Virus record (IMG/VR): IMGVR_UViG_2565956731_000002
DNA from: a virus
Taxonomy: Duplodnaviria > Heunggongvirae > Uroviricota > Caudoviricetes
DNA: 21,775 nucleotides
Direction: 5' to 3' (one strand)
Shown here: in pieces, positions 12,804 through 21,194 of the stretch
Layout: the number at the start of each line of letters is the position of its first letter
Numbering within the stretch: position 1 is the first letter of the stretch
Notes under the pieces: model-generated
Database searches by the model: none
The model's input: the letters and a program-made list of their open reading frames with translations, nothing else
What the model was told of the DNA's origin: nothing
Translations under genes and position numbers: made by a program

Positions 12804-12940
12804 TGTTTGAGTCTTATATGGCAGAGCGTCTTCGCCGCCGCTGGGTGCGCCTGCGCTTATATCGTTTTCCTGGTTCTGTTTTGACCGATTACCGAATACT
12901 GAAGAATTACGCCAAAACCCTGACAGGAGCAGGAGTATGA
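12800..12940 (+). CDS. ylcG: YlcG-like small protein, 46 aa (below the ORF-track size cut-off)
   Basis: ATGATG at 12800 overlapping the rusA stop; [46 protein letters not shown]; stop at 12938..12940; same position as ylcG between rusA and Q in DLP12. Confidence 0.5.
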
Positions 12941-13025
12941 AGTCAGAGATAACAATCAACTAATACTGTTTTGTTGATTTTTGCTTGTAATTGGCGTTCT
13001 GGTCTGATTTTTGTGGAGTAAGTTG

Positions 13026-13409
13026 ATGCGTGATATTCAGATGGTTCTTGAGCGTTGGGGAGCGTGGGCGGCTAATAATCATGAAGATGTGACCTGGTCG
13101 TCCGTTGCCGCCGGTTTTAAGGGATTAATTCCTTCAAAAGTAAAATCTCGCCCGCAATGTTGTGACGATGACGCGATGATCATTTGCGGGTGCATGGCCC
13201 GTCTGAAAAAGAACAACAGCGATTTACACGATTTATTAGTAGATTATTATGTATGTGGTATGACATTCATGTCACTGGCAAGTAAGCATTGCTGCTCGGA
13301 TGGTTATATCGGGAAAAGGTTACAGAAGGCTGAGGGCATAATTGAAGGGATGTTAATGGCATTAGATATCCGGTTAGATATGGATATCGTTGCTAATAAT
13401 TCTAATTGA
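13026..13409 (+). CDS. quuD: Late-gene antiterminator Q (DLP12 QuuD-like)
   Basis: [26 protein letters not shown]…[18 protein letters not shown]… recognised as QuuD-type Q; ATG at 13026 with GGAG upstream (the ORF track begins at an upstream TTG at 13011). Confidence 0.85.
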
Positions 13410-13424
13410 TATGCAATTGTTTAC

Positions 13425-13597
13425 TAAAAGTTATTAAAAATGGGGCGTGGAAACGCCCCCAAAATAAAGGGTAATATATAACAGAAGGTTTATATAGTAA
13501 GAAGCAAGGTAGTGCTTCTAAAGGAAGTGGCTTGAGGGCTCCACTTATATGTTGCGGAGGCAAAGCCTCCCGCAACATATCTTTTTCGTAAGTCAGA
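13425..13597 (-). ncRNA. ipeX: nmpC 3' UTR with its own minus-strand terminator; corresponds in position to the IpeX regulatory RNA described downstream of nmpC/lc
   Basis: Highly structured stretch between the porin stop (13598) and a minus-strand hairpin GGGGCG-TTTCCA-CGCCCC (13442..13459) followed by AUUUUUAAUAACUUUU. The published description places ipeX between the nmpC stop and its terminator. Confidence 0.4.
13547..13588 (+). terminator. Plus-strand intrinsic terminator about 140-180 nt downstream of Q; candidate tR'-type terminator of a short 6S-like late leader
   Basis: ATATGTTGCGGAGG-CAAAG-CCTCCCGCAACATAT (about 14-bp stem with one bulge) followed by CTTTTTCG. It is not a terminator on the minus strand, where there is no U-run after the hairpin. 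Confidence 0.5.
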
Positions 13598-14680
13598 TTA
13601 GAACTGATAAACCAGACCTACAGCGACGATGTCGTCGGTATCAATACCAGCTGTTTTGGTAAACTTACTATCGTCAATTAAGTTGATTTTGTAATCAACA
13701 AAAGTGGACATGTTTTTATTAAAGTAGTAAGTAGCACCGACATCGACATACTTGACTAAGTCTCGGTCACCATGAACACCAAGGTCTTTACCTTTTGACT
13801 GAAGGTAAGCAACAGATGGTCGCAGACCGAAGTCAAACTGATATTGTGCTACTGCTTCAAAGTTTTGTGCTTTGTTTGCAATATGGTTATTACCAAAAAC
13901 GGTCATATTCTGAGTTTCAGAATATGTGGTAGCCAGATAGATATTGTTCGCATCATATTTCAGGCCTGCAGCCCATACTTCCGCATTTTTGCCGGAGGCA
14001 TTGAATTTGCTCTTACCATAGGCGACCTGACCGTCAGTGCGATCTGATTTAGCATAGGTTGCACCCACGCCGAATCCTTCATACTCATAAGTAGTGGAGA
14101 AACCGAAACCATCACCATTGGCTTCAGTTACGTCAGTGCGGTCATTTTTACCCTGATACTGAGCAGCAAAGTTCAGGCCATCGACCAGACCAAAGAAGTC
14201 GTTGTTACGATAAGTTGCAACACCAGTAGTGCGACCAGTCATGAACACATCTGTTTGGGTCCAGGTATCACCACCGAATTCTGGCAGGACGTCAGTCCAC
14301 GCACCGATGTCGTATGCTACACCGTAGTTACGGCCGTAATCGATTGAGCCGTAATCACCAAATTTCAGGCCTGCAAATGCAAGACGGGTTTTGTCTTTGG
14401 AAGAACCTTGAGATTCAGCACGGTTGCCTTTGAATTCATATTCCCACTGACCGAAACCAGTCAGTTGATCGTTGATTTGGGTTTCACCTTTGAAGCCAAG
14501 ACGGGCATAAGTAGTATCACCATCATCTGCATCATTAGAGGAGAAGTAGTGCTTGGCATTAACTTTCCCGTATAGATCCAGCTTGTTACTGTCTTTATTA
14601 TAAATTTCAGCTGCCTGAGCAGACATCGCCATCAGTACTGATGCAGCTACAGCAGAAATTGCCACTGTTAATTTTTTCAT
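13598..14680 (-). CDS. nmpC: OmpC/OmpF-family general porin (NmpC / Lc type), intact, with signal peptide
   Basis: [40 protein letters not shown]… and the C-terminal …VAVGLVYQF are typical enterobacterial trimeric porin; location between Q and the holin as in DLP12/PA-2. Confidence 0.9.
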
Positions 14681-15108
14681 TGTACGCCCTTTTTTTTGAA
14701 CTATTATTAAAAAATGATGTCACTGCGCGATAAATATTCATCTAATCAATGCGATTATTTCAAGATGTAAGTTTTAGTTTCTCATTTAATTTGTGAAGTA
14801 GATCTCTATTTTTATCTGAACCTTTTCTATCTAATCCTATTCATGGCTCTTGTTTGAACGAAAATAAATCTATTAGCTAATTTATATTAATGGCACTTAT
14901 TTATAAGCGCTCTATAATTCTTTAACTTAATTTAAACAAACTAAAAATAACATCGGAAATTATTCATTGGTTATTTGTTGAAGTTTTCTTATGTATTTGT
15001 GGTGGTGTTTTGAACACTCGGTGGCATTCTCACAAATATCATTTAGTAGTTTACGTACGTAAAAAATTGGTTATGCTGTTAAGAGTGGTTACTTCGTCAC
15101 ACAGCTTA

Positions 15109-15140
15109 AACCCGCCGTCGAGCGGGTTTTTCCATTTTTT
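15109..15140 (+). terminator. Plus-strand intrinsic terminator inside the 590-bp AT-rich region between the porin start and the holin
   Basis: AACCCGC-CGTCGA-GCGGGTT hairpin followed by TTTCCATTTTTT; no ORF of meaningful size upstream on the plus strand. Confidence 0.55.
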
Positions 15141-15269
15141 GAGTCTCGATATTAGCTGATAACCCAATACCTGAGTTATTCACTGACTCCGAATCTGTTA
15201 CGTTTCTGCCTTTATTGCGATACGTAGTATCCCCTTAATTTACACCCGCTTTGTCTGCGAGGTGGGGTT

Positions 15270-15485
15270 ATGAAATCCATGGATAAGTTAACAACGGGTG
15301 TCGCCTATGGCACCTCAGCAGGTAGTGCCGGGTACTGGTTTTTACAGTTGCTCGATAAAGTCACGCCCTCACAGTGGGCGGCAATAGGTGTGCTGGGTAG
15401 TCTGGTATTTGGCTTGCTGACGTATCTGACAAACCTTTATTTCAAGATTAAAGAAGATAAGCGTAAGGCTGCGAGAGGTGAATAA
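15270..15485 (+). CDS. essD: Phage 21-type class II holin/pinholin with dual-start motif (Met1-Lys-Ser-Met4)
   Basis: [71 protein letters not shown] closely matches S21 as remembered; GAGGTGGGG ribosome-binding site; stop overlaps the next start (TAATG). Confidence 0.85.
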
Positions 15486-18400
15486 TGTCGCCATCATTAC
15501 GCAAGGCTATTGCTGCTGCTATTGGTGGTGGGGCTGTTGCCATAGCGTCTGTGCTCATCACTGGTCCGAGTGGTGACGATGGCCTGGAAGGTGTCAGCTA
15601 CATACCATACAAAGATATTGTTGGTGTATGGACTGTATGTCACGGGCATACAGGAAAAGACATCATGCTCGGTAAAACGTATAAAGGCAGCAGTAAGGGG
15701 CATACCCCGCGCGAAGCGAAGGACAACCTGAAATCCACGCAGTTACTGAGTGTGATCGATGCCATCAGCGAAGGGCCGATTGAAGGTCCGGTGGATGGGT
15801 TAAAAAGCGTGCTACTGAACAGTACGCCGGTGCTGGACACTGAGGGGAATACCAATATCTCCGGTGTCACGGTGGTGTTCCGGGCAGGTGAGCAGGAGCA
15901 GACTCCGCCGGAGGGGTTTGAATCCTCCGGCTCCGAGACGGTGCTGGGTACGGAAGTGAAATACGACACGCCGATCACCCGCACCATCACGTCGGCAAAC
16001 ATCGACCGTCTGCGTTTTACCTTCGGTGTGCAGGCACTGGTGGAAACCACTTCAAAGGGTGACCGGAATCCGTCGGAAGTTCGCCTGCTGGTTCAGATAC
16101 AGCGTAACGGTGGCTGGGTGACGGAAAAAGACATCACCATTAAGGGCAAAACCACCTCGCAGTATCTGGCCTCGGTGGTGGTGGATAACCTGCCTCCGCG
16201 CCCGTTCAATATCCGGATGCGCAGGATGACACCGGACAGCACCACAGACCAGCTGCAGAACAAAACGCTCTGGTCGTCATACACCGAAATCATCGATATG
16301 AAACAGTGCTACCCGAACACGGCACTGGTCGGTGTGCAGGTGGACTCGGAGCAGTTCGGCAGTCAGCAGGTGAGTCGTAATTATCATCTGCGCGGGCGCA
16401 TTCTGCAGGTGCCGTCGAACTATAACCCGCAGACGCGACAATACAGCGGTATCTGGGACGGAACGTTAAAACCGGCATACAGCAACAACATGGCCTGGTG
16501 TCTGTGGGATATGCTGACCCATCCGCGCTACGGCATGGGGAAACGTCTTGGTGCGGCGGATGTGGACAAATGGGCGCTGTATGTCATCGGCCAGAATTGC
16601 GACCAGTCGGTGCCGGATGGTTTTGGTGGCACGGAGCCGCGCATCACCTGTAATGCCTGGCTGACCACACAGCGTAAGGCGTGGGATGTTCTCAGTGATT
16701 TCTGCTCGGCGATGCGCTGTATGCCGGTATGGAACGGGCAGACGCTGACGTTCGTGCAGGACCGGCCGTCGGATAAGGTGTGGACCTATAACCGCAGTAA
16801 TGTGGTGATGCCGGATGATGGCGCGCCGTTCCGCTACAGTTTCAGCGCCCTGAAGGACCGCCATAATGCCGTTGAGGTGAACTGGATTGACCCGGATAAC
16901 GGCTGGGAGACGGCGACAGAGCTTGTGGAGGACACGCAGGCCATTGCCCGTTACGGTCGTAACGTCACGAAGATGGATGCCTTTGGCTGTACCAGTCGGG
17001 GGCAGGCACACCGAGCCGGGCTGTGGCTGATTAAAACGGAACTGCTGGAAACGCAGACCGTGGATTTCAGCGTGGGCGCAGAAGGGCTTCGCCATGTGCC
17101 GGGCGATGTTATTGAAATCTGCGATGATGACTATGCGGGTATCAGCATCGGCGGGCGCGTGCTGGCGGTGAACAGCCAGACCCGGACGCTGACGCTCGAC
17201 CGTGAAATCACTCTGCCATCCTCCGGTACCACGCTGATAAGCCTGGTTGACGGAAGCGGCAATCCGGTCAGCGTGGAGGTCCAGTCCGTCACCGACGGCG
17301 TGAAGGTAAAAGTGAGCCGGGTTCCTGACGGCGTTGCCGGATACAGCGTGTGGGGGCTGAAGTTGCCGACGTTGCGCCAGCGCCTGTTCCGCTGCGTGAG
17401 TATCCGTGAGAACGATGACGGCACGTATGCCATCACTGCCGTGCAGCATGTACCGGAAAAAGAGGCCATCGTGGATAACGGGGCGCACTTTGACGGCGAC
17501 CAGAGCGGCACGGTGAATGGTGTCACGCCGCCAGCGGTGCAGCACCTGACTGCCGAAGTCACCGCAGACAGCGGGGAATATCAGGTGCTGGCGCGCTGGG
17601 ACACGCCGAAGGTGGTGAAGGGGGTGAGCTTTATGCTTCGCCTGACCGTGGCAGCGGATGACGGCAGTGAGCGGCTGGTCAGCACGGCCCGGACGACGGA
17701 AACCACATACCGCTTCACGCAACTGGCGCTGGGGCGGTACACGCTGACAGTCCGGGCGGTAAATGCGTGGGGGCAGCAGGGCGATCCGGCGTCGGTATCG
17801 TTCCGGATTGCCGCACCGGCAGCACCGTCGAGGATTGATCTGACGCCGGGCTATTTTCAGATAACCGCCACGCCGCATCTTGCCGTTTATGACCCGACGG
17901 TACAGTTTGAATTCTGGTTCTCGGAAAAGCGGATTACCGATATCAGGCAGGTTGAAACCACAGCCCGCTATCTTGGCACGGCGCTGTACTGGATAGCTGC
18001 CAGTATCAATATTAAGCCGGGCCATGATTATTATTTTTATATCCGCAGTGTGAATACTGTTGGCAAATCGGCATTCGTGGAGGCTGTCGGTCAGGCGAGC
18101 GATGATGCTTCCGGCTATCTGGATTTTTTCAAAGGCCAGATAACTGAATCCCATCTCGGCAAGGAGCTGCTGGAAAAAGTCGAGCTGACGGAGGATAACG
18201 CCAGCAAACTGGAGGAGTTTTCGAAAGAGTGGAAAGACGCCAACGATAAATGGAATGCCATGTGGGGCGTCAAAATTGAGCAGACCGAAGACGGCAGGCA
18301 TTATGTCGCGGGTATTGGCCTCAGCATGGAGGATACGGAGGAAGGCAAACTGAGCCAGTTCCTGGTTGCCGCTAACCGTATCGCGTTTATTGACCCGGCA

Positions 18401-19075
18401 AACGGGAATGAAACGCCGATGTTTGTGGCGCAGGGCAACCAGATATTCATGAACGAAGTGTTCCTGAAGTATCTGACGGCTCCCACCATTACCAGCGGCG
18501 GCAATCCGCCGGTATTTTCCCTGACACCGGACGGGCGGTTGACGGCGAAAAATGCCGATATCAGCGGTAACGTGAATGCGAACTCAGGGACGCTCAATAA
18601 TGTCACGATTAACCAGAACTGTCGGATTCTGGGAAAACTGTCTGCCAACCAGATTGAAGGTGATATTGTCAAAACGGTGGGAAAAGCCTTTCCGAGAAAT
18701 GGCAGTTATGCCAGCGGTACAATAACGGTCACTGTGTACGATGACCAGGCTTTTGACCGTCAGATAGTAATCCCACCCGTTCTGTTTCGCGGTGGTAAGC
18801 ATGAAAACTTCAACAGCAACAACCAACAGTCATACTGGTATTCAACCTGTAAGCTGCAGGTACTGAAGAACGGACAGGAAATCTTTCAGCAACCCGCGAC
18901 GGATGTCAGCAGGGTATTTTCATCCGTCATTGATATGCCAGCGGGACACGGCCATGTCACCCTGACTTTCAATGTTTCTTCATATGGTGCAAATAACTGG
19001 ACGCCAACGACCAGTATCAGCGACCTTCTTGTTGTCGTGATGAAGAAATCAACAGCCGGTATCAGTATCAGTTGA
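15485..19075 (+). CDS. J: In-frame deletion fusion: first ~65 codons of a SAR endolysin (R21-like) joined to nearly full-length tail-tip host-specificity protein J (from J residue ~3)
   Basis: N-terminus [66 protein letters not shown] matches the R21 SAR endolysin start; from ~15677 the sequence [39 protein letters not shown]… is lambda J from its N-terminus through >1000 aa. The last ~150 aa diverge from lambda J. Confidence 0.85.
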
Positions 19076-19120: not shown

Positions 19121-19133
19121 TTGTGGAGTGAAT

Positions 19134-21194
19134 ATGGCAGTACAGATTTCAGGCGTGCTGAAAGACGGTGCAGGAAAACCAATACAGAACTGTACTATTC
19201 AGCTCAAAGCAAAGCGTAACAGCACCACGGTACTGGTGAACACGGTGGCCTCTGAAAATCCGGATGAAGCCGGGCGTTACAGCATGGATGTTGAGTATGG
19301 CCAGTACAGCGTCACCCTGCTGGTTGAAGGTTTTCCGCCTTCACATGCCGGGACCATTACCGTCTATGAAGGTTCCAGACCAGGTACGCTGAATGATTTT
19401 CTCGGTGCCATGACGGAAGATGATGTCATGCCGGAGGCATTGCGTCGTTTTGAGGTAATGGTGGAGGATGTGGCACGCAACGCTGAAGCCGCCTCTCAGA
19501 GCGCAGCGGCAGCAAAGAAATCAGAAACAGCAGCGGCATCGTCCAGGAACGCGGCGAAAACATCAGAGACGAATGCAGGTAACAGCGCGAAAGCGGCAGC
19601 TTCTTCAAAAACAGCCGCACAAAACGCAGCAACAGCGGCAGAACGTTCAGAGACAAATGCCCGTGCGTCAGAAGAAGCCTCCGCAGACAGTGAAGAGGCT
19701 TCCCGCCGTAATGCAGAGTCAGCCGCTGAAAATGCCGGAGTCGCCACCACAAAAGCGCGGGAGGCTGCAGCAGACGCAACAAAGGCCGGGCAGAAAAAGG
19801 ATGAGGCTCTGTCGGCAGCGACACGAGCTGAAAAGGCGGCAGACCGCGCAGAAGCCGCAGCGGAAGTGACTGCAGAGCCCTATGCGAATATAGTGCCGCC
19901 GCTGCCTGATGTGTGGATACCGTTTAACGATTCACTGGATATGATTGCGGGTTTTTCTCCGGGCTATAAAAAAATAGCTATTGGTGACGATGTGGTTCAG
20001 GTCGCCAGTGATAAACAGGTTAATTTCAGTCGCGCATCAACGGCAACATATATCAACAAATCTGGCGAACTGAAAACGGCGGAAATTAATGAGCCGCGAT
20101 TTGAGTGTGATGGCCTGCTTATTGAGGGACAAAGAACGAACTACATGCTCAATTCGGAAAGTCCAGCCAGCTGGGGGAAGTCATCAAACATGGATGTGCC
20201 CGAAACCGGGACGGATAGTTTTGGTTTTACTTATGGAAAGTTTGTCTGCAACGATTCTCTGGTTGGGCAAACTTCGGCTATTAATATGGCATCAATTGCT
20301 GCAACAAAGTCAGTTGATGTCTCAGGCGATAACAAGTACGTGACAACCTCATGCCGTTTTAAAACAGAACGACAGGTAAGGTTACGTATACGGTTTGATA
20401 AGTATGATGGTAGTGCAACAACTTTTCTTGGCGATGCGTACATTGATACGCAAACGCTTGAAATTAATATGACAGGTGGTGCTGCCGGCAGAATTACGGC
20501 ACGAGTCAGGAAGGATAAGACCACGGGCTGGATTTTTGCAGAGGCAACGATTCAGGCAATTGATGGTGAGTTAAAAATAGGCTCTCAGATACAGTATTCT
20601 CCTGAGCAGGGTGGGGCAACAGTATCTGGTGACTATATTTATCTTGCCACCCCACAAGTAGAGAATGGGCCGTGTGTATCATCATTTATTATTTCAGGAG
20701 GCAGCGCAACGACAAGAGCCAGTGATTTGGTTAGTATCCCCACCAGAAATAATCTTTATAAGTTACCATTTACTTTTTTACTTGAGATTCATAAAAACTG
20801 GGATATTGCACCAAACGCCGCACCCCGCGTGTGGGATATAGCAGCAGCCAATACCGGGCAATCAGCAATTGCAGCAATCAACAGAGGTAGTGGTAAGTTA
20901 TATATGAGTCTGTCAAACCCTTCAGGCTCGTATGTTAATAGCGCAGCGACAGATGTATTTGCAGAGAAAACCACATTTGGATGTATTGCAAAAGCTGATG
21001 GTCACTTTCATGTGGTGACAAATGGTAAAGCGGTTAATGAAGTTTATTGTGAATATAATGGCGTGACCGCTGATAAAAATATCCGATTTGGAGGGCAGAC
21101 GAATACTGGAGAACGACATCTGTTTGGCCATATTCGCAATTTCCGCATATGGCATAAAGAATTAAATGACAGGCAATTAAAAGAGGTCGTATGA
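19134..21194 (+). CDS. stf: Side tail fibre protein: lambda Stf-like N-terminus, short Ala-rich shaft, and a non-lambda C-terminal domain with a lectin-type (laminin-G / concanavalin-A-like) signature
   Basis: N-terminus MAVQISGVLKDGAGKPIQNCTIQLKAKRNSTTVLVNTVASENPDEAGRYSMDVEYGQYSV… resembles lambda Stf; the C-terminal tail …FGHIRNFRIWHKELNDRQLKEVV fits the conserved end of LamG-type jelly-roll domains. ATG at 19134 with GGAG upstream. Confidence 0.75.
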   Translation: MAVQISGVLKDGAGKPIQNCTIQLKAKRNSTTVLVNTVASENPDEAGRYSMDVEYGQYSVTLLVEGFPPSHAGTITVYEGSRPGTLNDFLGAMTEDDVMPEALRRFEVMVEDVARNAEAASQSAAAAKKSETAAASSRNAAKTSETNAGNSAKAAASSKTAAQNAATAAERSETNARASEEASADSEEASRRNAESAAENAGVATTKAREAAADATKAGQKKDEALSAATRAEKAADRAEAAAEVTAEPYANIVPPLPDVWIPFNDSLDMIAGFSPGYKKIAIGDDVVQVASDKQVNFSRASTATYINKSGELKTAEINEPRFECDGLLIEGQRTNYMLNSESPASWGKSSNMDVPETGTDSFGFTYGKFVCNDSLVGQTSAINMASIAATKSVDVSGDNKYVTTSCRFKTERQVRLRIRFDKYDGSATTFLGDAYIDTQTLEINMTGGAAGRITARVRKDKTTGWIFAEATIQAIDGELKIGSQIQYSPEQGGATVSGDYIYLATPQVENGPCVSSFIISGGSATTRASDLVSIPTRNNLYKLPFTFLLEIHKNWDIAPNAAPRVWDIAAANTGQSAIAAINRGSGKLYMSLSNPSGSYVNSAATDVFAEKTTFGCIAKADGHFHVVTNGKAVNEVYCEYNGVTADKNIRFGGQTNTGERHLFGHIRNFRIWHKELNDRQLKEVV

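Follow-up and report, generated by a model that had tools for sequence, protein, structure and literature searches.

A phage 21-type pinholin gene left intact beside an in-frame endolysin::J deletion scar in a defective lambdoid prophage of Escherichia coli

The lysis cassette of phage 21, which comprises the pinholin gene S21 (products S68 and S71) and the endolysin gene R21, is one of the closest described relatives of the locus discussed here. An M-K-x-M dual start gives an antiholin from Met1, with an extra Lys, and a holin from Met4 (PMC9636201). Pinholin and antiholin biology has been described (PMC9636201, PMC7312051), as have the lethality of pinholins upon triggering and the E-X8-D-X5-T catalytic triad of signal-anchor-release (SAR) endolysins (PMC9239132). 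Related genes are found in two prophages of Escherichia coli, DLP12 of K-12 (quuD, nmpC, essD, rrrD, rzpD/rzoD) and an undeleted lambdoid prophage of UTI89, a uropathogenic strain (UPEC). A K-12 ΔybcS ΔrzpD/rzoD double mutant is viable and shows a 2.4-fold increase in outer membrane vesicles (OMVs; Pasqua et al., 2021, PMC7918800). Here we analyze essD, an S21-type pinholin/antiholin gene located within a 21,775-nucleotide stretch of viral DNA (IMG/VR record IMGVR_UViG_2565956731_000002; the whole stretch is called the window below). The window coincides almost exactly with a single defective lambdoid prophage of E. coli inserted at icd. EssD itself is a textbook pinholin that requires no new mechanism, and the analysis adds only an in-frame deletion scar between the endolysin gene R and the tail gene J, where this scar occurs and its single origin, and the sequence of decay events. 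Most probably this is ordinary recent decay, in which an effectively neutral essD is intact since the deletion is recent and the gene small, and not through selection.

The essD gene lies at positions 15270..15485 (+; 216 bp) and encodes a 71 aa protein with the C-terminal end KAARGE. Like the S21 product it belongs to PF04971 ('Bacteriophage P21 holin S'; 121 bits with the cutoff at 26, E=2e-35, profile positions 1-63/64), has 71 residues and an M-K-x-M start, and combines a weak first transmembrane domain (TMD1) with a hydrophobic second one (TMD2). The initial annotation had described an intact pinholin with a Met-Lys-Ser-Met dual start and a good ribosome-binding site, and both descriptions hold. 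The dual start M1-K2-S3-M4 is at 15270..15281, with Met1 at 15270 and Met4 at 15279; the Met1 start would yield a 71-aa antiholin and the Met4 start a 68-aa pinholin. A Shine-Dalgarno sequence, GAGGTG (15259..15264, +), was read from the sequence 5 nt before ATG1 and is identical in DLP12. Folding of the essD leader and start codon gave no structure beyond shuffled controls (z=-0.2), and a centroid hairpin that overlaps the Shine-Dalgarno sequence is only suggestive. In silico hydropathy predicts weakly hydrophobic Gly/Ala/Ser/Thr-rich residues at about 8-27 (TMD1) and strongly hydrophobic residues at about 36-56 (TMD2), a layout that fits the SAR-like weak TMD1 and hole-forming TMD2 of a pinholin. 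EssD shares 100% identity with the phage 4A7 holin (NC_049946) and with K-12 EssD (b0554), and it occurs at ≥99% identity in 41 phage records. Because of this identity, comparison with the phage 4A7 holin and K-12 EssD revealed no inactivating substitutions, including in the transmembrane helices, where the initial annotation had pointed out that lesions would matter. By sequence membership, EssD is a class II holin of the S21 type. From its identity to characterized relatives we infer that it would form small pinholes that collapse the proton motive force (PMF), lethal but non-lytic on their own.

As in phage 21, the holin stop codon overlaps the start codon of the SAR endolysin gene (TAATG, with the endolysin ATG at 15485). 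What remains of the endolysin is codons 1-66 (15485..15682, +). These residues match R21 (PDB 3HDE; residues 1-68 in the structural match, as for 4ZPU) and RrrD (4ZPU) with E about 1e-37, and they include the SAR anchor (residues about 8-26) and the catalytic motif E35-X8-D44-X5-T50. Residues 67-165 of about 165 aa, i.e., the C-terminal 99 that complete the lysozyme fold, are gone; homology to full-length R stops at 15683, and only positions 3-45 of 125 of PF00959 are matched. The remnant has the anchor and the triad but not the complete fold, and on this basis we regard it as not a functional SAR endolysin. Unlike the phage 21 cassette, the window also has no spanin genes, and the cassette could at most depolarize the membrane, without lysis. 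The initial annotation had the endolysin cut after about 65 residues. The gene is indeed non-functional, with exactly 66 residues kept, but it is not ended there: it is fused in frame to J.

A three-way alignment with R and J of phage 4A7 places the deletion junction at 15682..15683 (+), where 'TA' is common to both sides. The R side ends in …ACGTATA and the J side reads GGTAAAGG… (TAAAGGCAGC… in the phage 4A7 alignment), with only 'TA' in common, and the megablast end points are 15683 and 15682. No stop codon is present at the end of the endolysin homology; the frame runs on through J codon 3 and is open to 19075. The lambda-J-like tail-tip (host specificity) gene extends from codon 3 to its stop at 15683..19075 (+), in frame with the R remnant. 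The resulting chimeric open reading frame (ORF; 15485..19075, +) has 1196 aa, with R codon 66 joined to J codon 3 (66+1130=1196). Residues 67-189 of the chimera align with residues 3-125 of lambda J in 8IYK, Met1-Gly2 of J being the only loss. Six J-specific Pfam domains were detected (E between 1e-35 and 1e-43) and the domain series is complete (FNIII-A, Phage-tail_3, Ig_J, Ig_J_second, tail-tip fibre and C-terminal receptor-binding domain), which makes the J part, as judged from these matches, a full J. RefSeq labels the 1196-aa chimera 'tail tip protein J', despite its first 66 residues being a SAR-endolysin stub. Annotators should be aware of the stub hidden under this label.

The undeleted prophage of UTI89 occupies the same icd/sitABCD site, has the same sit-proximal right end and encodes porin and EssD proteins with the same accessions; its QuuD has a different accession and is a close variant of the window QuuD. 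DNA identity between the two prophages is 97.9% to the R breakpoint, about 95% over the first 2.5 kb of J and 97% at the right end. R homology stops at UTI89 position 1258626 and J restarts at 1276978, a deletion of 18,353 bp (about 17.2 kb in phage 4A7 coordinates) that begins 198 bp downstream of essD. Compared with UTI89, the rest of R, Rz/Rz1, iss/bor, terminase, the head genes and the tail genes up to I were deleted. UTI89 keeps these 18.35 kb and, unlike the window, a full early region. Its prophage carries int, xis, exo/bet/gam, kil, cIII, a LexA-family repressor, cro, cII, O, P and the nin region, followed by quuD, porin, EssD, rrrD, rzpD, iss, terminase, head, tail, J and side tail fibre.

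The exact 46-bp junction was found at 100% identity in 80 records, which represent 79/5426 complete E. coli genomes, and the sit-proximal prophage end in 453/5426, including UTI89, 536 and a Nissle 1917 derivative. Therefore, the deletion marks a sublineage. In complete genomes the prophage is bounded by icd, the e14 attachment site, and by sitABCD. Two junction matches fell on records labelled as plasmids, pMY504-2 and 23AR0151; that on the 'plasmid' pMY504-2 was discounted, as this linear record contains chromosomal icd'-bluF genes and is a mislabelled chromosomal piece. The precisely mapped R::J deletion can serve as a sublineage marker for the icd/sitABCD prophage in extraintestinal pathogenic E. 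coli (ExPEC)-type strains, including ST1193-type isolates.

We compared nine carriers in detail: the window, A3 (from a bat), O170:H18, M1/5, MY504, FDAARGOS_536, XYEH3783, KE41 and AHB7. A3 and O170:H18 keep exo/bet/gam/kil, repressor, cro, ydaT, O and P, with an S24-peptidase repressor in O170:H18 and an XRE repressor in A3. The window, M1/5, MY504, FDAARGOS_536, XYEH3783, KE41 and AHB7 have insertion sequence (IS) elements in the early-region slot. In the window, IS3-family fragments around ISEc21 (IS110-family) at 1320..3857 (+) fill the slot that is occupied by exo/bet/gam/kil, repressor, cro, ydaT and the start of O in relatives; this annotation was mapped from the L007 record, which is 99.99% identical to the window, and the Pfam rve and IS110 transposase domains were detected. 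The interval between xis and the truncated O has no repressor, cro, N or pR, only IS3/IS110 material, and the claim that the early promoters feeding Q are deleted is thus borne out. Homology to L004 (O170:H18) and L006, which retain the early region, restarts at 3866, within O. Since some carriers of the junction still have repressor, cro, O and P, the R::J deletion preceded the loss of the early region in the window's lineage. The deletion is of single origin, and decay struck the lysis and virion genes before it reached the immunity region.

Is essD conserved because it is useful to the host? The gene is identical in DNA sequence in 9/9 carriers, with zero variable sites. However, the same nine carriers show only 0-2 SNPs over the whole ylcG-to-R' segment of 2.9 kb, of which 777 bp are intergenic, and the dN/dS ratio among them is thus undefined. 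The essD gene is no better conserved than the adjoining neutral non-coding DNA. From Q through essD (12900-15485), the window and phage 4A7 differ at 2 of 2586 positions (0.08%); at this divergence the expected number of substitutions in essD is 0.17 and the probability of none is 0.85. The chromosomal flanks of the most distant carriers differ at about 2-5 per kb (0.2-0.5%). Given such low background divergence, an intact essD is the null expectation. At 216 bp, the gene also makes up less than 1% of the prophage remnant in which an IS element could insert or a deletion arise. Its survival beside the deletion is what neutral decay predicts and is of little weight alone. The initial annotation had argued that retention suggests either silencing or domestication. 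Silencing is plausible from the sequence, as discussed below, but the inference itself is not needed, since essD is no better conserved than neighboring neutral DNA.

The neighboring chimera is broken in O170:H18 by a nonsense mutation (TGG>TAG at codon 392) and in FDAARGOS_536 by an IS4 insertion, and 4/60 among the carriers listed have a split-pseudogene annotation. In AHB7 (L010), a 3-bp in-frame deletion at the equivalent of window position 15511 shortens the Ala/Gly-rich SAR segment of R'::J by one residue. These lesions indicate that the chimera is dispensable and not under selection. Differences between lineages are patchy (J 116-117, tail-fibre ORF 24, rusA 10), and the fusion ORF has about 90 synonymous and about 20 non-synonymous codon changes that start 62 bp past the junction. 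The patchy differences in the J part read as a signature of allele exchange with other prophages.

The window prophage is a DLP12/phage-21-like lambdoid that is still early in its decay, and the essD region is the 5' end of its late operon. As in DLP12, Q is followed by an antisense porin gene and then S, EssD is identical, QuuD is 96% identical, the essD leader aligns closely including a terminator-like hairpin, and the immunity region is missing. DLP12 differs in that it is integrated at argU rather than icd, keeps intact rrrD and rzpD/rzoD and has its porin gene interrupted by IS5, whereas in the window the porin is intact and R/Rz are deleted. The initial annotation had held Q and candidate late signals to be intact, and the comparison agrees, with only 2 differences between Q plus the Q-to-S interval and a deposited phage genome. 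The quuD gene (13026..13409, +) encodes an intact Q-type late antiterminator of 127 aa (PF06530, E=9e-54). It distantly matches the Q21 structures 6P18/6JNX (E=3e-8), has 122/127 residues identical to K-12 QuuD and is represented by one protein accession in all carriers examined. Its sequence and its place upstream of a late-promoter region, terminators and lysis genes identify it as a Q21-like antiterminator with predicted activity. The Q-proximal late-promoter region (13410..13597, +) has no differences from phage 4A7 and ends in terminator T1 (about 13547..13580, followed by CUUUUUC; +), which folds at -22.6 kcal/mol (z=-4.4). A pattern scan for sigma-70 promoters found promoter-like sites no more frequent than in shuffles and did not locate the late promoter. 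The porin gene (13598..14680, -; intact Lc/NmpC-type, 360 aa, PF00267 E=2e-151) separates Q from S, and any late transcript has to run through it; the same antisense arrangement recurs in phage 4A7, UTI89 and DLP12. The porin accession, WP_000737271.1, is also found in the UTI89 and NRG 857C prophages, and the phage 4A7 gene is 1 nt different. A second terminator-like hairpin, T2 (15108..15129 plus a T-tract to 15141, +), identified by pattern scan and folding, is 130 nt upstream of essD and conserved in K-12 DLP12.

With T1 and T2 between Q and essD, the latter should require polymerase modified by Q for its expression, just as in the parent phage. Silencing of essD is plausible on structural grounds, as pR, cI and N are missing and two terminator hairpins separate Q from the gene. 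There is nothing obvious in the window to feed Q either, with no pR or N and a terminator at 10020..10040 upstream. As nothing strong feeds Q in this strain, essD is most likely weakly or not expressed, to judge from the sequence.

Several points weigh against a silent, neutral essD. The silence of the locus is something that we infer, and transcription of the DLP12 cassette, which also lacks early promoters, has been reported, with Q, RpoE and Hha as its regulators (PMC7918800). A site for the sigma-S RNA polymerase holoenzyme has been mapped in the DLP12 nmpC-essD spacer (PMC5493296). The window is 95% identical to DLP12 from ybcN to Q, and the 330 nt before essD align closely save for a 17-bp indel. 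Given the closeness to a locus reported to be transcribed, low-level expression of essD is possible. The indel is located at 15200..15220, downstream of T2, where the window has CTGCCTTTATTGCGATA, missing from K-12 DLP12 (L011). It might affect any Q-independent promoter of essD. Finally, essD is intact in every carrier seen, as selection also predicts, and on this point the data do not discriminate.

The comparisons show the following history. One illegitimate recombination over the 2-bp TA microhomology joined R codon 66 to J codon 3. The deletion started beyond essD, sparing the gene with its ribosome-binding site, dual start and TAATG coupling. The in-frame joint was a 1-in-3 chance, giving the SAR-lysozyme-stub::J ORF. 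Later, in the window's lineage, IS elements displaced the repressor/cro/pR/N region and cut O. If transcription of the locus took place, QuuD would act on RNA polymerase at the late promoter just past Q, and the polymerase so modified would continue through T1, T2 and the porin gene on the opposite strand. Building up in the inner membrane, the Met4 product would then trigger and open small pinholes that collapse the PMF, with the Met1 antiholin form setting the timing. Since the endolysin is without 60% of its fold and spanins are absent, the outcome would be depolarization and death without lysis.

Decay is not the only way to read an intact pinholin. The host could have domesticated it, keeping essD with quuD for its own benefit through PMF dissipation, envelope or OMV modulation or effects on biofilms, a reading that we consider unlikely. 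In its favor, EssD is identical to K-12 EssD although the genes differ at 8 nucleotides, 8/8 of them synonymous, and both essD and quuD are intact in 9/9 carriers examined. Of 5426 complete E. coli genomes, 4315 (about 80%) encode an essD-type holin together with the beginning of its SAR endolysin, which might also point to a benefit. But the conservation of essD is not in excess of that of flanking non-coding DNA, and synonymous-only divergence from DLP12 (8 synonymous, 0 non-synonymous differences) is typical of a gene in functional phages. With the same protein in 41 phage records, this pattern stems from constraint acting within the phage gene pool rather than within the host, and as the same allele circulates in deposited phage genomes the DLP12 comparison is uninformative on domestication. 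Transcription of the DLP12 cassette has been reported, along with effects on biofilm, peptidoglycan and OMVs, and a K-12 mutant with the holin but without R and Rz is viable with 2.4-fold more vesiculation (PMC7918800). That ΔybcS ΔrzpD/rzoD mutant is the closest experimental analogue of the window, a pinholin without endolysin or spanin, though it is an engineered clean deletion in DLP12 and the window a natural R::J deletion. The DLP12 phenotypes, however, are ascribed to the complete S-R-Rz operon, of which R and Rz are deleted here. Loci elsewhere that appear to have essD without rrrD are mosaics with a different lysozyme; NRG 857C, a candidate for an independent pinholin-only remnant, was rejected as a mosaic with ydfR and a different lysozyme. 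Domestication is thus unsupported, and the claims made for DLP12 leave it a low probability. As a natural pinholin-only genotype, the window prophage is a possible test bed for these contested claims on DLP12-type lysis genes.

Less probable still is a role for the fusion protein. The SAR-lysozyme-stub::J chimera could be a functional membrane-tethered or periplasmic J derivative, with essD kept as its release or trigger partner; most carriers have the ORF in frame and uninterrupted over 1196 codons, it retains a SAR export signal and the complete J domain set, and its translation is coupled to that of essD. The prior probability of an in-frame joint is 1 in 3, however, independent carriers have the ORF interrupted by a nonsense mutation or IS4, and the J-part differences resemble alleles imported from other prophages, not selection in place. 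Sec export of a 1130-residue trimer-forming tail protein also seems implausible, and we find this reading very improbable. That essD is a dead gene or chance ORF has a negligible probability: we found no support for it, the RNA fold at the start codon being unremarkable, and the Pfam match, the 100% identity to deposited phage holins and K-12 EssD, and the intact ribosome-binding site and dual start all stand against it. More speculatively, the Q-pinholin pair, stripped of endolysin, spanin and virion genes, in A3 and O170:H18, where the repressor/cro/O/P region persists, and possibly at a low level in the window strain, could be a host-retained, stress-triggered switch to death or dormancy by PMF collapse, or an envelope/OMV modulator; in a variant of this idea the SAR::J protein would be a functional exported protein. 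We consider it improbable. Recent neutral decay accounts best for the intact essD.

The remainder of the window is as follows. At the left end are a frameshifted integrase gene (1..1127) and xis (1108..1296). The O gene, 5'-truncated and frameshifted, starts at about 3866 and is followed by an intact P gene. In O170:H18 (L004), and in this carrier only, a PP2C phosphatase and Ser/Thr kinase pair (927..2392 of the L004 record) adjoins the S24-type repressor of the early region. Between P and the nin block is an inverse-autotransporter 'moron' of 1423 aa (5737..10008, +), an intimin/invasin-like protein with IAT_beta and multiple Big_1/Invasin_D3 repeats. The length of this gene differs by carrier (annotated as 3552, 3909 and 4266 nt; 4272 nt in the window) through gain or loss of roughly 357-bp Ig-repeat units, and BLAST shows repeat-copy differences between strains; TRF reported no tandem array in the gene. 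In M1/5, ISEc52 is found at the 5' side of the gene and only a 1506-nt Ig-domain coding sequence (CDS) is annotated. Convergent with the autotransporter is an alpha/beta hydrolase gene (BD-FAE/Abhydrolase_3; 10045..11088, -). One hydrolase accession is common to 9/9 carriers examined, and a close variant occurs in the DLP12-position prophage of NRG 857C (L012). The terminator at 10020..10040, found by pattern scan upstream of the nin block, is strong and bidirectional. The nin-like block has the order ybcN-ninE-ybcO-rusA-ylcG, according to the annotation of near-identical carriers. Beyond J, a side-tail-fibre-like ORF of 688 aa (19128..21194, +) combines a prophage tail fibre N-terminal domain with a C-terminal Laminin_G_3/ConA-like domain and is probably a chimera. 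In RefSeq this ORF is split in two, the pseudogene being named 'partial tail fiber' and the CDS 'phage head spike fiber domain'.

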